From: a virus
Reading direction: 5' to 3' (one strand)
IMG/VR virus record: IMGVR_UViG_3300048907_000144
DNA length: 64,000 bases
This document shows, piece by piece, positions 43,568-48,243 of this stretch. A model generated the notes under the pieces. The model saw only the letters and a program-made list of their open reading frames with translations, had not been told where the DNA came from and did no database searches. Every line of letters begins with the position of its first letter. The stretch's first letter is position 1. A program made the position numbers and the translations under genes.

Positions 43568-43763
43568 GGCTCACGTCCTGTGCTTTGAAGGGTGCCCTGA
43601 GTTGGTTCTTCGGCAAGCAATGCCGCATCCCGTCCTCGTAGTATTCGACAATCGCCAGCTCAGGCATGATCAGCAGAATGCGCGCGGTCTTGAGCACCGG
43701 CCGCCCACCGTTCGGGTGCGGGGCCATCACGTCAGCGCCAACGCCAACCAGTTGCTGCATCAC
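43548..43763 (-). CDS. hypothetical protein
   Basis: GTGA overlap with the upstream acidic ORF. Confidence 0.5.
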   Translation of the reverse strand: MMQQLVGVGADVMAPHPNGGRPVLKTARILLIMPELAIVEYYEDGMRHCLPKNQLRAPFKAQDVSHALVSK

Positions 43764-43960
43764 AGGTCCTCGAATAGGTGGTCGTAATCGTCCAGGTCGT
43801 CCTCGTCGTCCTCAGGCTCCTCGCCGTCAGGCGTTTGTCCGTAGGCGCGCAGGATCGCTTTGTGCTCGAGCTGCCACGCACGCTCGTACTCGCGCCACTC
43901 TTCCTCGGTCGCGAACGCCGTCGAGCCAGGGTCCTGTGTGAAGCGCGGATCGTCGCTCAA
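43760..43960 (-). CDS. acidic 66-aa protein, candidate immunity protein
   Basis: ATG overlaps the MuF-toxin stop; Asp/Glu-rich tail. Confidence 0.6.
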   Translation of the reverse strand: MSDDPRFTQDPGSTAFATEEEWREYERAWQLEHKAILRAYGQTPDGEEPEDDEDDLDDYDHLFEDL

Positions 43961-46900
43961 TAGACCGCCTCTACTTCCTTCAGGTGGACATGCATCGTGC
44001 CGCCGGGCTTGCCCTCGACCTTGATGACCTTGACCGGCGTGTGGGCCTTGATCAGCACCTCACCGCCTGCTTCGCTCGGGTTGAACTTGCCGAGGTCCTT
44101 CGCACGCGTCTTATGCGGCGGCAGAGGCTCGATCGTGCATTGCATGTTGCCGCCGAACGAGCCCGACTTTCCGCAGCTCGAAAAGCCATGCCACTGAATG
44201 ATCGCGCCAGGAACATAGGTTGCTTGAGTCTCTGTGTCGGCAGTGAACCCGCGGTAGATCGTGCCAACGTAAGGCGGCATCTTCGTCAACGCAGTGTTGA
44301 TCGCGTTGGCGAACACGTGGGTCTTGTCATCCCATACGCCGCTGCGCAGCTTGGCGTTGGCCGCGTAAGCATTCGGCCCGACGTAGCTCTGGATCATCGC
44401 GCTTTCGAACGGCGTAACCGGGTAGCCGTGCTTTCCGGTGCCTTCCTCGTAGAACTTCTTGAACTGCTGAATGATCTTCGCTTTGTCGCCGCCAGCGAGT
44501 TGAACGAGCGTGTCGACCTGCTCGGCGTGCTCTGGATCGATCCCGATGTCGGCCGCGATCTTCGCAAGCTCGGCTTGATGCTTGGCGCTCTCGGCCTTCG
44601 CCTTAGCCTCTGCCTCGATCTTCGCCAGCTTGGTCGCGGCCGCCTGTTCCTTCTTGAGCTGGGCAGTTGCCTTTGCAGCGACCTCCGCTTCCATCTCGTC
44701 AATCTTGGCCAGCGCTGCCTTGGTCGCCTTGTACTCGGCGACCTTCTGCTCCAGCTCGTGCGCCTCGGGCGTCTTGGTCGCCCACTTCTCGTTGAACGCC
44801 TTAACCACAGCCTTGCCCAACTCAGAGGTGGGCGCGGGGTAGAACGTCCCGGTCTTCTTCGCCTTCTCCAGTTCGGCCGCTGTCGCTGTGGCCTTCGTGA
44901 ACTTCTGTTCCAGCTTCGTCATCCACTCGGTCTGGCCGCCTAGAAGCTCCTCTTCAGCAGCTTCCGCCTCGATCTCGGCCTCGGCCGCAGCCTTGACGTG
45001 TGCAGGAAGGTCCGCGCCGGGGACGTCGAGCGTCTTCTGGTACTCGGCCAGCCAGTTCTTCCGCGCAATCAGCGTGGCAGCAACGCCTTGCCCAGCAAGC
45101 CCATGTTGGTTGACCAGCGCAATAATCGAGTAATCCGGGATCGCCAGCACCTTGTCGATGGACGCCGAGACCTCGGCGTCGGTCATGTTCCCGAACACCG
45201 ACGCAGTCTGCGCGTTGATCTTCGGATCGCGCATGGACGTGATCTCGCCCACAGTCGAGCCGAACTCCTTGGTCTCGCCCTGCGCCCGGTACATGAGCGT
45301 GCCGCCCTGGTCGATCCGGAACGGGACCCCCGATGGCGAAAGCAGAACGTTATTGTTGTCTTGCCCCATCACGTCGCGGTTGCCGAGCCATGCGTCGACC
45401 GCAAAGTTCTCGCGCAGGTACAGGATGGCCCCGCCCTGCTCGTCCAGCGTCCCTTGCGAGTACGTCTTGGTACCCGGGATAAACTCGCTCGCAACTGCCG
45501 GCTTGCCCTCCAACACGGTCTTGACCTCGTGCGAGACCGGCACGCCCGCGAGCTTGTAGAGCTGGTTCGATAATAGGTCGGCGTTGACGTGCGCCTCGGT
45601 CTTCGGCGTCTTCACGTACCACTTCTGTCCAGTCATCGGCGCCAGATAGAACCCGCCCGCCACGCTACCCGCTTGGCCACCAACCTTGGTCCAGGCCGGC
45701 GTTGCGCCTGGAATGGTGGCCTTGGCCTCGGCTTGCTCGCCTTCATACGCGGGCGTGCCCGGCTCAGCTCCCGTCGTCAGCTCGGGTGGATCAAACGGGA
45801 TCGGGTCCGGTTTGGGCGTCGGTGCGTGCTCTTGATTGGATTCGGCAAGCGTCGGCTGATAGCCGTACTGCTTGCCCTTGTAGATCATGGCGTTGGCTTG
45901 CGCCTCCAGCCCCTTCTCCTTCTTGAGCAGCCCCTGCTTGTAATAGGACTCGCCGATCTTCTGCTTGAGCCCGCTTATGATCGAGACGTCGGCACCGTGG
46001 CTCTTGGCCTCCTCGACCAGCTTGCCAACGATATAGCGGTAGTTGTCGTTGCGCTTGGCCTCGTTCTGCAGCGTGTTCTGCACCCGCATCTCGTGGTGCG
46101 CCTTGTCCTTCGACGGCTCGAACAGCTTCTTCTTTGGTGCTGCTGGCCCGCCGGTAGCACCACCACTAATCCCTCCACCAGTGATCGAGGCGAACTGCCC
46201 GCCCTCGGACGTGCCCGCCGGCTCACGCGGCTGGTTCGGATTCCACGCGTCCTCACGCAGGAACCTGTTCTCGAACTTCCTCGGTGCAAGCCTTGCGAGA
46301 GCGCGATGGCGTTTGCGCCCCAACTGTTCAAGCAGCAGCTCGCGCTCCGTCTTCTTGCGCGCGTCCTCGATTGCCTCATCGCGACTGAACCGCTTGTCGT
46401 CCCACGGGAACCACGTGCACCGACAGTTCGGATGGATCGGCAACGTGTCTTCCACATCGTCAATATCGTGCGGCGAATTGGCAGCGAACGCGTCGCACTC
46501 GATACAGACGAACTCGTCCTCCGCGGTGCGTACGCCGACCTCGATCGGCTCCGTGACTTCGCTCAACTCCCACTCGGGACGCGCTGGCTTCTTCTCGCGA
46601 TAGCCCTTGTGCTTGGCGTCGTGCGTGAGCGCGTCGCCCAACCCGCCCGGCAGCAGCAACGCTTGCTTGGGCAGCAGCTTCTCAGCAACCACGCCCACCT
46701 TGGTAATCCCGGCCGCCCGATACGCCGCCAGCCGTCCGCGGTTGTGGCACGCCACGCAGAACGTATTCGCCAGCGCCATGACCCGCCGCGGCCCGACCTT
46801 GTCGAACGCCTTGGCCATGCGGCGCCAGGTCATGGTCTTGTTGGCCCGGCGCTTGGTGAGCGCGATCGCCGCCTCGCGCATGAGCGCTTGGACCACGGCC

Positions 46901-47289
46901 GCCTCGATCGCCTGCAACTCGATCTTAGCCAGCTCAGCCCAGGCGCCAGAGCCCTCACCGGGCGCTTCCGAGCGGGTCTGGAGCGCCCCAACCGCCTCCC
47001 CGCTGGCCCAGGCCCTGGCAACCCATTGGCTTAGCCAGGGGCCCTCTAGGGCTTGCCCAGCCGCTACCCGCGCCCAGCCATTGAAAGCCTGCAGCCGGGT
47101 CTCGGGCGGCTGTAGCGCCAGCCCACCCCCGCCCAGCCCCAGCACATCGTGCTCGATCACCGCCTGCCGCATCGCCGAGCGGAACATGTTGAGACGCAGC
47201 TTGCCGGCCGCCCGGAAGCTCCGTCTGATCCCCGCGGTGCCGGTTGGATCGGGCCCGCGCGCGTCGGTGACGAACGCGTGGATGTTCAC
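43957..47289 (-). CDS. MuF (gpF)-family head protein fused to kinase-like and ADP-ribosyltransferase domains
   Basis: DPTGT start and CIEC...HPNCRC (MuF); YVK...DAWLGNRD...NV...RIDQG (HipA/PI3-4 kinase-like); IYRG...FSSC...GEVL (R-S-E ART). Confidence 0.85.
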   Translation of the reverse strand: MNIHAFVTDARGPDPTGTAGIRRSFRAAGKLRLNMFRSAMRQAVIEHDVLGLGGGGLALQPPETRLQAFNGWARVAAGQALEGPWLSQWVARAWASGEAVGALQTRSEAPGEGSGAWAELAKIELQAIEAAVVQALMREAAIALTKRRANKTMTWRRMAKAFDKVGPRRVMALANTFCVACHNRGRLAAYRAAGITKVGVVAEKLLPKQALLLPGGLGDALTHDAKHKGYREKKPARPEWELSEVTEPIEVGVRTAEDEFVCIECDAFAANSPHDIDDVEDTLPIHPNCRCTWFPWDDKRFSRDEAIEDARKKTERELLLEQLGRKRHRALARLAPRKFENRFLREDAWNPNQPREPAGTSEGGQFASITGGGISGGATGGPAAPKKKLFEPSKDKAHHEMRVQNTLQNEAKRNDNYRYIVGKLVEEAKSHGADVSIISGLKQKIGESYYKQGLLKKEKGLEAQANAMIYKGKQYGYQPTLAESNQEHAPTPKPDPIPFDPPELTTGAEPGTPAYEGEQAEAKATIPGATPAWTKVGGQAGSVAGGFYLAPMTGQKWYVKTPKTEAHVNADLLSNQLYKLAGVPVSHEVKTVLEGKPAVASEFIPGTKTYSQGTLDEQGGAILYLRENFAVDAWLGNRDVMGQDNNNVLLSPSGVPFRIDQGGTLMYRAQGETKEFGSTVGEITSMRDPKINAQTASVFGNMTDAEVSASIDKVLAIPDYSIIALVNQHGLAGQGVAATLIARKNWLAEYQKTLDVPGADLPAHVKAAAEAEIEAEAAEEELLGGQTEWMTKLEQKFTKATATAAELEKAKKTGTFYPAPTSELGKAVVKAFNEKWATKTPEAHELEQKVAEYKATKAALAKIDEMEAEVAAKATAQLKKEQAAATKLAKIEAEAKAKAESAKHQAELAKIAADIGIDPEHAEQVDTLVQLAGGDKAKIIQQFKKFYEEGTGKHGYPVTPFESAMIQSYVGPNAYAANAKLRSGVWDDKTHVFANAINTALTKMPPYVGTIYRGFTADTETQATYVPGAIIQWHGFSSCGKSGSFGGNMQCTIEPLPPHKTRAKDLGKFNPSEAGGEVLIKAHTPVKVIKVEGKPGGTMHVHLKEVEAVY

Positions 47290-47468
47290 TCTAGCCGCAC
47301 TCGCAAATTGTCGACGACTATGGCGAGGTCATTGAACTTGCCGCAATCCAACAGGTGCTGCGGACATTGGCCGCGCAGGAACGGGTGCGGCGCAGCTAAG
47401 AACAACTCCACCGCCTCCGGGCCGCCCAGCAAGCGCAACAGTCGGTTGCAGATTTCGGTCTCGCTCAT
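47286..47468 (-). CDS. MbcA/ParS/Xre antitoxin C-terminal (DUF2384)-like mini-protein
   Basis: MSETEICNRLLRLLGGPEAVELFLAAPHPFLRGQCPQHLLDCGKFNDLAIVVDNL; stop overlaps the MuF ATG. Confidence 0.65.
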   Translation of the reverse strand: MSETEICNRLLRLLGGPEAVELFLAAPHPFLRGQCPQHLLDCGKFNDLAIVVDNLRVRLE

Positions 47469-47724
47469 ATCCCACCACCTCCGCACATGGCGGACATTGC
47501 GGCTGCATGGTCTCGGGACACCACGGCCAGAAGAAGTGCGTGCCCAGCATTCCGAACACGATCCCGACCGCGAACGGCAGCAGCGGCCAAGTCTCCGCCC
47601 AGCCACGCACCGTGGCCGACAGCGTCACCCCGCCTTTGTTGATCGCGCGCGCCTCCAAGATGATGAAGGTCACGAACAACGCGGATAGCCACAGAAACCA
47701 GACGCCACTCCAGTCCAGCGTCAT
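47329..47724 (-). CDS. small two-TM membrane protein
   Basis: WFLWLSALFVTFIILEARAI...TLSATVR...WP...GTHFFW; 3' end overlaps the next gene. Confidence 0.6.
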   Translation of the reverse strand: MTLDWSGVWFLWLSALFVTFIILEARAINKGGVTLSATVRGWAETWPLLPFAVGIVFGMLGTHFFWPWCPETMQPQCPPCAEVVGYERDRNLQPTVALAGRPGGGGVVLSCAAPVPARPMSAAPVGLRQVQ

Positions 47725-47951
47725 AACGGGTCAACGCACTGCGCGCTGCTCACCCAGCGTTCCCACGCTTCGATGGTGCCCCAATTCACCTGAGTCGACG
47801 CGAGCCTACGACGATCGTGGCTGCAGCCGGGGATCATCACCGCCAAGCGCTGGCATTCCAACGCATTGCCGCGGAACAGCTCACAGGAGAACGCGGACGG
47901 CATGCGCGCGTCGGCGAACTCAACCGCGATGGTGACCACGTGGGTTTCCAT
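47721..47951 (-). CDS. hypothetical protein
   Basis: GAGG RBS; METHVVTIAV start. Confidence 0.55.
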   Translation of the reverse strand: METHVVTIAVEFADARMPSAFSCELFRGNALECQRLAVMIPGCSHDRRRLASTQVNWGTIEAWERWVSSAQCVDPL

Positions 47952-47958
47952 GCCGACC

Positions 47959-48243
47959 TCATCGGCGTTGAGGCGGGTCCGGAACGATCTCGTGCACCTT
48001 GCCATCGGGCGATGTGATCCGTACGCCATGTCCACTCTTCAGCGTGTCGACGATCTGCACGATCGCCTTCTGCGGAAACGCGCACGCCCACTCGTGGAGA
48101 AAGATGCGCAACGAGCTCGGCAGCACGTCGTGGCCCGCCATGTTCTCGGCAGCCTTCGCATGCGCCTGATCAGCCGAGGGGCGGGCGACGTTTTGCCTTC
48201 GCCCCGGAATCAAGCCCAGGGTAGATGTCCGCACGGGGCTCAC
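47959..48243 (-). CDS. hypothetical protein
   Basis: ORF track; start uncertain (48141 also possible). Confidence 0.5.
   Translation of the reverse strand: MSPVRTSTLGLIPGRRQNVARPSADQAHAKAAENMAGHDVLPSSLRIFLHEWACAFPQKAIVQIVDTLKSGHGVRITSPDGKVHEIVPDPPQRR

Follow-up and report, generated by a model that had tools for sequence, protein, structure and literature searches.

A predicted stand-alone DUF2384 antitoxin domain encoded directly upstream of a MuF-kinase-ADP-ribosyltransferase gene in one phage clade

What might a protein of only 60 residues do when its gene runs directly into that of a phage head protein ending in a toxin-like ADP-ribosyltransferase (ART) domain? The gene considered here, orf60, lies on the minus strand of a 64,000-nucleotide stretch of viral DNA (IMG/VR record IMGVR_UViG_3300048907_000144, hereafter the window). 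It extends from an ATG at 47468 to a TGA at 47288-47286 (47286..47468, stop codon included), and is preceded by a Shine-Dalgarno sequence GGAGG read at 47478..47482 on the same strand, 9 nt 5' of the ATG. The stop codon and the GTG start of the MuF gene (47289-47287) share the sequence GTGA (47286..47289, minus strand). This arrangement had been described from the letters alone and is borne out. The window has a G+C content of 62%, so that open frames are cheap. GC3 (0.77-0.87) and codon-usage log-odds nevertheless shift at about position 47500 from the frame of the upstream membrane-protein ORF to that of orf60, and this extends down to 47290. Across six sequence-distinct orthologues, dN/dS in the orf60 frame is 0.14-0.71, mostly 0.2-0.5, as against 0.5-1.1 and 1.4-4.2 in the two other frames. 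A protein length of about 60 residues follows from a stop codon immediately before the orf60 ATG in one related contig (L007) and from a 60-nt spacer between orf60 and the upstream gene in another (L020); the same two features rule out a 106-residue reading from a GTG at 47606 and a frameshift fusion of orf60 with the membrane ORF. We conclude that orf60 is a genuine gene under purifying selection.

The upstream neighbour is a small membrane-protein gene, called in the window as a 131-residue ORF (47329..47724, minus strand), whose conserved part ends near 47530 (...WCPETMxPxCP). Its last 45 or so codons are non-conserved read-through, out of frame over the first 46 codons of orf60. The corresponding gene ends with ...PVCP in L020, 60 nt before orf60, and at the MuF start in L010. 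In the window, the membrane gene has thus lost its own stop codon and spacer. Gene callers are misled by this read-through: in L016 they report the long membrane ORF and overlook orf60. In addition, all clade members have two small conserved ORFs, of 94 and 104 residues, in the portal-MuF interval (window positions 47721-48243, minus strand); the 104-residue ORF reads METHVVTIAVEF..., and neither has a family assignment.

The sequence-only reading had recognised in orf60 the pattern of the DUF2384 domain, the toxin-binding C-terminus of MbcA, ParS and Xre antitoxins. Profile matches, homology and fold comparison now bear this out. In the window copy, the sole Pfam match is to PF09722 (Xre_MbcA_ParS_C, formerly DUF2384) at 20.4 bits (E 5e-4), below the gathering score of 24.5 bits, whereas the orthologue in the same position of L016, 56% identical, passes it with 29.3 bits; the profile check suggested earlier thus succeeds with an orthologue and falls short with the window copy. 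The four remaining orthologues score 16.5-20.1 bits, and PF09722 is the only or best Pfam family in all six (E 8e-7 to 8e-3). When 1.8 billion proteins were searched exhaustively by phmmer with orf60, four matches were returned: one orthologue, one repeat artefact and two short proteins of 86-87 residues. The artefact, P0005, is a plant-type leucine-rich-repeat protein of 4900 residues in which about 30 tiny HLLDCG matches are summed, and was discarded as a false positive. The two short proteins, P0006 (E 1e-5) and P0007 (E 1e-4), are the only real non-orthologous matches; both clear the PF09722 cut-off (27.1 and 29.7 bits), and the gene for P0007 immediately precedes that of a RES toxin (PF08808, E 1e-14).

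An AlphaFold model of orf60 built from a small alignment consists of four helices (pLDDT 91). In a Foldseek search of the PDB with this model MbcA came first (probability 0.98, TM 0.64), followed by Xre of Pseudomonas putida, ParS, NatR and VPA0769. VIA-align, which is independent of Foldseek, placed Xre (6GW6_B, Z 6.1), VPA0769 (5.4), MbcA (4.8) and ParS (4.6) in ranks 1-4 among 48,161 chains, each match spanning 55-59 residues over the C-terminal toxin-binding domain. These Z values are modest, as expected of 60 helical residues, and the list of matches is coherent. Other resources contributed little: the PHROGs search assigned no family to orf60, NCBIfam gave only weak Xre_ParS_antitoxin / TIGR02293 matches for two orthologues, and a profile search of PDB sequences (alignment A1) placed MbcA and ParS at E 0.7-0.8 among chance PHPF-motif cupredoxins, a result not usable alone. 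We accept the DUF2384 assignment because sequence, transitive homology and fold agree; as judged from sequence and model, the identification of orf60 as a stand-alone Xre-MbcA-ParS C-terminal toxin-binding domain holds. The gene encodes this domain alone, with no room for a helix-turn-helix (HTH).

The protein encoded next, of 1110 residues, has five parts: a gpF-like N-terminus, a linker, a kinase-like domain, a coiled coil and a C-terminal ART domain. Its MuF (gpF-like) head-morphogenesis domain (residues 1-340; 46270..47289, minus strand) has PHROG head-morphogenesis and minor-head matches at residues 255-318, and its homologues combine this common N-terminus with differing C-termini (ART, GNAT or DUF7178). 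The kinase-like domain (residues 527-750; 45040..45711, minus strand) has neither a Pfam match nor a sequence match in the PDB; its resemblance to HipA_2 and PI3_PI4-kinase, detected by language-model features only, serves as a lead. The ART domain (residues 915-1110; 43960..44547, minus strand) is closest to Tre1, the toxin of the Serratia type VI secretion pair Tre1-Tri1 (6DRH, 6DRE), by sequence (phmmer E 4e-3) and by fold (Foldseek E 2.5e-12), with ExoS/T, Vis, SpvB and C3 next by fold. No RES chain was among its top 50 fold matches, Pfam searches with pieces of the MuF protein gave no RES match, and a phmmer search with one RES toxin against all window ORFs found nothing, within the limited reach of a single-sequence search. 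Since R, S-x-S and E are kept and both sequence and fold match Tre1, the MuF C-terminus is assigned to the R-S-E ARTs and not to the RES enzymes; from its sequence and model, the fold is intact and Tre1/C3-like. Tri1, the immunity protein of Tre1, is an ADP-ribosylhydrolase whose extension occludes the active site, and no such gene is present at the window locus.

The kinase-like domain recurs, at 33-43% identity, in very large proteins of phages of about 85-130 kb that infect Enterobacteria, Pseudomonas, Aeromonas and Gordonia. Pfam has no family for it, and several of these proteins are annotated as ADP-ribosyltransferases. The one from Yersinia phage fHe-Yen8-01 (L023) is annotated as a particle-associated ART toxin, which would fit a packaged and injected cargo; L024 is Pseudomonas phage Jeremy. 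In these two virulent phages the virion proteins with the kinase-like domain also have a match to an ART profile. The cargo is fused to MuF in the window (43957-47289), L016 and L001-4, and forms a separate gene of 892 codons behind a MuF of 547-561 residues in L020 (4001-8345), L022 (181-2962) and L021 (3235-5067). The shorter MuF has a C-terminal domain of its own, of about 220 residues and without a Pfam match; the fused form lacks this domain as well as the first 118 or so residues of the effector.

Homologues of orf60 are carried by six sequence-distinct lineages (the window, L001-6, L007, L016, L020 and L022), all from one phage clade. Identity among the orthologues is 50-80%, as against 83-89% for the portal protein. 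The 4-nt overlap with MuF is kept in all carriers. Wherever the contig reaches far enough (L001/L004, L016, L020 and L022) the kinase-like domain is encoded downstream, and the ART is present in the window, L016, L020 and, by its start only, L004. In L020 and L022, where the effector is a separate 892-residue protein encoded behind a MuF of 559-561 residues, orf60 still precedes MuF. No homologue was found beside MuF genes without the kinase-ART effector (L011-13, L014, L015, L017, L026, L027, L031 and L032), in the distantly related MuF-kinase-ART loci L018 and L019, or in the virulent phages L023 and L024. Equal frequency beside toxin-less MuF genes, which the sequence-only reading had named as speaking against a link with the toxin, is thus not what is seen (0 of at least 7 distinct genes compared), a weak result, since the co-occurrence does not constitute independent evidence because all carriers belong to one clade.

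Two clade members do without orf60, namely L010 (/L025) and L021, and both contigs end before the toxin domains. Compared with L020, L010 displays a clean gap of about 250 bp at the position of orf60; L021 lacks orf60 and the membrane gene but retains the effector gene over its first 67 codons. By these sequence comparisons, orf60 is an accessory cassette of about 250 bp limited to one phage clade. In further searches for relatives, 50,697 phage records compared with orf60 by tblastn gave no match at E<=1, a degenerate-motif scan of IMG/VR gave no orf60-like match, and profile searches of viral contigs with orf60 and with the effector N-terminus found no relatives. Profile searches of genome contigs found nothing with MuF and one distant locus with the portal, and a search of metagenome contigs returned 4 loci, none of them a new clade member. 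The 60-nt spacer before orf60 in L020 (3755-3815) is AT-rich in a phage otherwise of 62% G+C and contains an inverted repeat, CTCCAGCGTT ... AACGCTGAAG; it looks like a remnant of the cassette's own upstream region, and is absent from the window.

A second pattern concerns the MuF start codon, which is GTG in all six orf60 carriers (window 47287-47289, L001 5170, L007 3204, L016 2844, L020 4001, L022 181) and ATG in six of six loci without orf60 (L010 6001, L021 3235, L011 5814, L018 892, L019 2944, L017 3001). The last amino acid of orf60 varies, and the final base of its codon is always G. The use of GTG in carriers versus ATG elsewhere is suggestive of a tighter coupling between the two genes, in lineages that are not independent of one another. 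Overlaps of 4 nt are usual throughout the head operon, so the orf60/MuF pair is not singled out by its overlap. Neither in the window nor in L020 did the surroundings of orf60 reveal a sigma-70-like promoter; since no separate promoter-like site is apparent, orf60 would be expressed late, together with MuF.

At its other end, the MuF gene overlaps by its stop codon a 66-residue acidic ORF (43760..43960, minus strand) with the C-terminal motif DLxDYDxL. Homologues of 66-88 residues lie directly after the toxin in L016 (6089-6310), L020 (8342-8596), L018 (4404-4670) and L019 (6000-6266). The acidic ORF thus follows the kinase-ART cargo in two phage lineages whose ART domains are only 32-34% identical, and it is missing in L011, which has flanking genes in common with L018 but a toxin-less MuF of 442 residues. 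Because it is present in L016/L020 as well as L018/L019 and absent from L011, the acidic ORF, unlike orf60, tracks the kinase-ART module across lineages. On these sequence grounds it is a candidate immunity protein, serving as a second antidote, or a chaperone; it belongs to no known family.

How, then, is orf60 best explained? It probably silences an NAD-using toxin, and the nearest candidate is the enzyme encoded next to it. In solved complexes the C-terminus of the DUF2384 domain plugs the NAD+ cleft of RES toxins, and MbcA is no longer functional once its last ten residues are removed (PMC6436930); RES enzymes are themselves divergent members of the ART superfamily (PMC9503650). Plugging of the adjacent ART by orf60 would therefore be the most economical reading, and the chance landing of an orphan DUF2384 domain beside an uncommon ART-bearing MuF seems unlikely a priori. 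We thus favour, tentatively and at slightly less than an even chance, the view that, in the producing cell, orf60 acts as an inhibitor of the packaged MuF ART. One clade of temperate phages would have taken up among its late head genes the toxin-binding domain of RES antitoxins, in a minimal form without an HTH, and this would be translated just before, and coupled to, the MuF-kinase-ART cargo protein. It would bind the NAD+ cleft of the ART domain of the cargo much as MbcA, ParS and Xre do on RES enzymes, and hold the enzyme silent until the cargo enters the head; the non-covalent plug may then be stripped off or left behind as ejection carries the cargo into a new host. The acidic ORF downstream could act as a second antidote or as a chaperone, perhaps for the kinase-like domain. 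Complex prediction pairing the ART domain (alignment A3) with orf60 (A4) returned a score of 0.00, which counts neither for nor against binding.

Several observations argue against this reading. The ART belongs with the R-S-E enzymes of C3/Tre1 type and is not a RES enzyme, and we know of no DUF2384 domain that binds this class; the immunity protein of Tre1 is an unrelated ADP-ribosylhydrolase. The distant L018 and L019 and the virulent L023 and L024 are devoid of orf60, as are L010 and L021 within the clade, and the acidic ORF tracks the toxin better than orf60 does. The earlier proposal of an upstream antitoxin domain as immunity for a virion-delivered ART is therefore upheld as regards the domain and its conserved overlap, and is called into question by the class of the ART and by the distant MuF-kinase-ART phages without orf60. 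Its further suggestion, that an upstream antidote replaces the usual downstream one, is weakened, as the acidic ORF lies downstream, where immunity genes are usually found, and comes and goes together with the toxin module in two lineages. It is possible, if more doubtful than not, that a RES-antitoxin plug has been re-targeted to a C3/Tre1-class ART on a virion cargo and forms an upstream, translationally coupled "safety catch", which with the acidic ORF would make a two-antidote system for kinase and ART.

The main rival explanation is that orf60 is a decoy antitoxin, binding RES toxins of the host (those of RES-Xre abortive-infection modules or stand-alone aRES proteins) and preventing NAD+ depletion during phage growth, with its adjacency to the MuF ART being incidental. 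The closest non-phage relatives of orf60 would suit such a role, being short DUF2384 antitoxins of which one is paired with a RES toxin, as would the way in which orf60 is gained or lost as a unit at a variable accessory-gene site between portal and MuF, the AT-rich spacer of its own in L020, and the kinase-ART modules found elsewhere without it. RES proteins are a proven anti-phage defence, and small phage proteins plug the RES active site (bioRxiv 10.64898/2026.01.28.702374); Freire et al. (2019) had suggested this very function for an MbcA homologue that mycobacteriophage Ibhubesi encodes (PMC6436930). Yet expression along with the late head genes, given that orf60 itself has no apparent promoter-like site, would come late for counter-defence, and adjacency to an enzyme of the ART superfamily would have to be a coincidence. 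Nor do the phage-record and IMG/VR searches reveal a widespread anti-defence family at the sequence level, and orf60 is, on comparison of the sequences by eye, unrelated to the validated aRad1 inhibitors. On balance we regard the decoy as unlikely, though deserving to be taken seriously.

A non-inhibitory partnership with the cargo is harder to sustain. If orf60 were an adaptor or chaperone that helps the large MuF cargo to fold, to be packaged or to dock at the portal, or were itself a small head-internal protein, it would be in its expected place within the head-assembly module, between portal and MuF; it would also be expected to stay before MuF, away from the effector gene, as it does in the split arrangements of L020 and L022, and two clade members do without it. 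All characterised members of the fold are toxin plugs, however, and a dN/dS of 0.2-0.5 with the low identity of the orthologues relative to the portal is typical of conflict genes and less so of assembly factors, which makes this reading quite improbable. The view that orf60 is no independent gene, being a chance ORF in GC-rich DNA or the frameshifted C-terminus of the membrane protein, draws on the 140 nt shared with the 131-residue ORF in the window, but is already effectively refuted by the codon, GC3 and dN/dS signals, by the lack of conservation in the overlapping tail, by the position at which the membrane gene ends in L020 and L010, and by the confident model.

With the antitoxins of RES systems (MbcA 6FKG; P. 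putida Xre 6GW6, 9R35; ParS 6D0H; NatR 8QNL/8QNQ; VPA0769 8GUG; PF09722 / DUF2384 / COG5642), orf60 has in common the four-helix fold and the signature G-x-P ... P-x-P-x-L-x-G-x-x-P ... G, and the order of orf60 and MuF, antidote first with overlapping stop and start, is typical of type II modules. It differs from these antitoxins in consisting of the 60-residue domain alone, lacking HTH and N-terminal part, and in its C-terminal "plug" segment, which reads L-x-V-R-L-x instead of the E-x-G-Q-P of RES-paired relatives. In place of an adjacent RES (PF08808) toxin, its neighbour is an 1110-residue virion protein with an R-S-E ART; in place of an N-terminal Xre-type HTH with autoregulation, it lies among late structural genes and shows no sign of autoregulation. 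Since both the RES toxin and the HTH are missing, the locus is not a RES-Xre module.

The locus also resembles the MuF polymorphic toxins of temperate phages (Jamet et al. 2017, PMC5576092). As in that family, a MuF N-terminus in the head module is joined to a variable C-terminal toxin, here an ART fold, is encoded between portal and protease/scaffold, and is followed by a small ORF, here the acidic candidate. The candidate immunity ORFs described by Jamet et al. are downstream only (PMC5576092); the window differs in its extra upstream gene of antitoxin type and in having two enzymatic domains, and its sister phages in carrying the cargo as a separate gene. A third point of comparison is provided by small phage proteins that block RES active sites, namely gp52 of Ibhubesi, an MbcA homologue for which this was proposed in 2019, and aRad1, for which it has been shown (Osterman et al. 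2026 preprint). Unlike orf60, neither is described from a head operon or as the neighbour of a MuF toxin. An identity of orf60 with aRad1 was rejected, as inspection by eye found no motif in common with aRad1a-g (W-x-E-G-[YF]-x-x-T-G ... W-G-C ... S-F-G; Table S4 of the preprint). In full-text searches of the literature, no paper was found to connect DUF2384 with MuF toxins or with R-S-E ARTs. The setting of orf60 is new for the DUF2384 family, to which it belongs.

Under either of the two leading readings, a protein of 60 residues with a confident model and a candidate target nearby lends itself to a cheap and decisive bench test. Should orf60 prove to be a decoy against host RES proteins, a family derived from antitoxins would join the new phage counter-measures against NAD+ depletion by RES and aRES proteins. 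To our knowledge, DUF2384 domains have so far been encountered only as partners of RES toxins. If orf60 inhibits the R-S-E ART, this would widen the target range of a common antitoxin fold and provide the first identified family of antidotes for MuF-borne ARTs, and it would reveal how phages protect the producing cell from the enzymes that they package.
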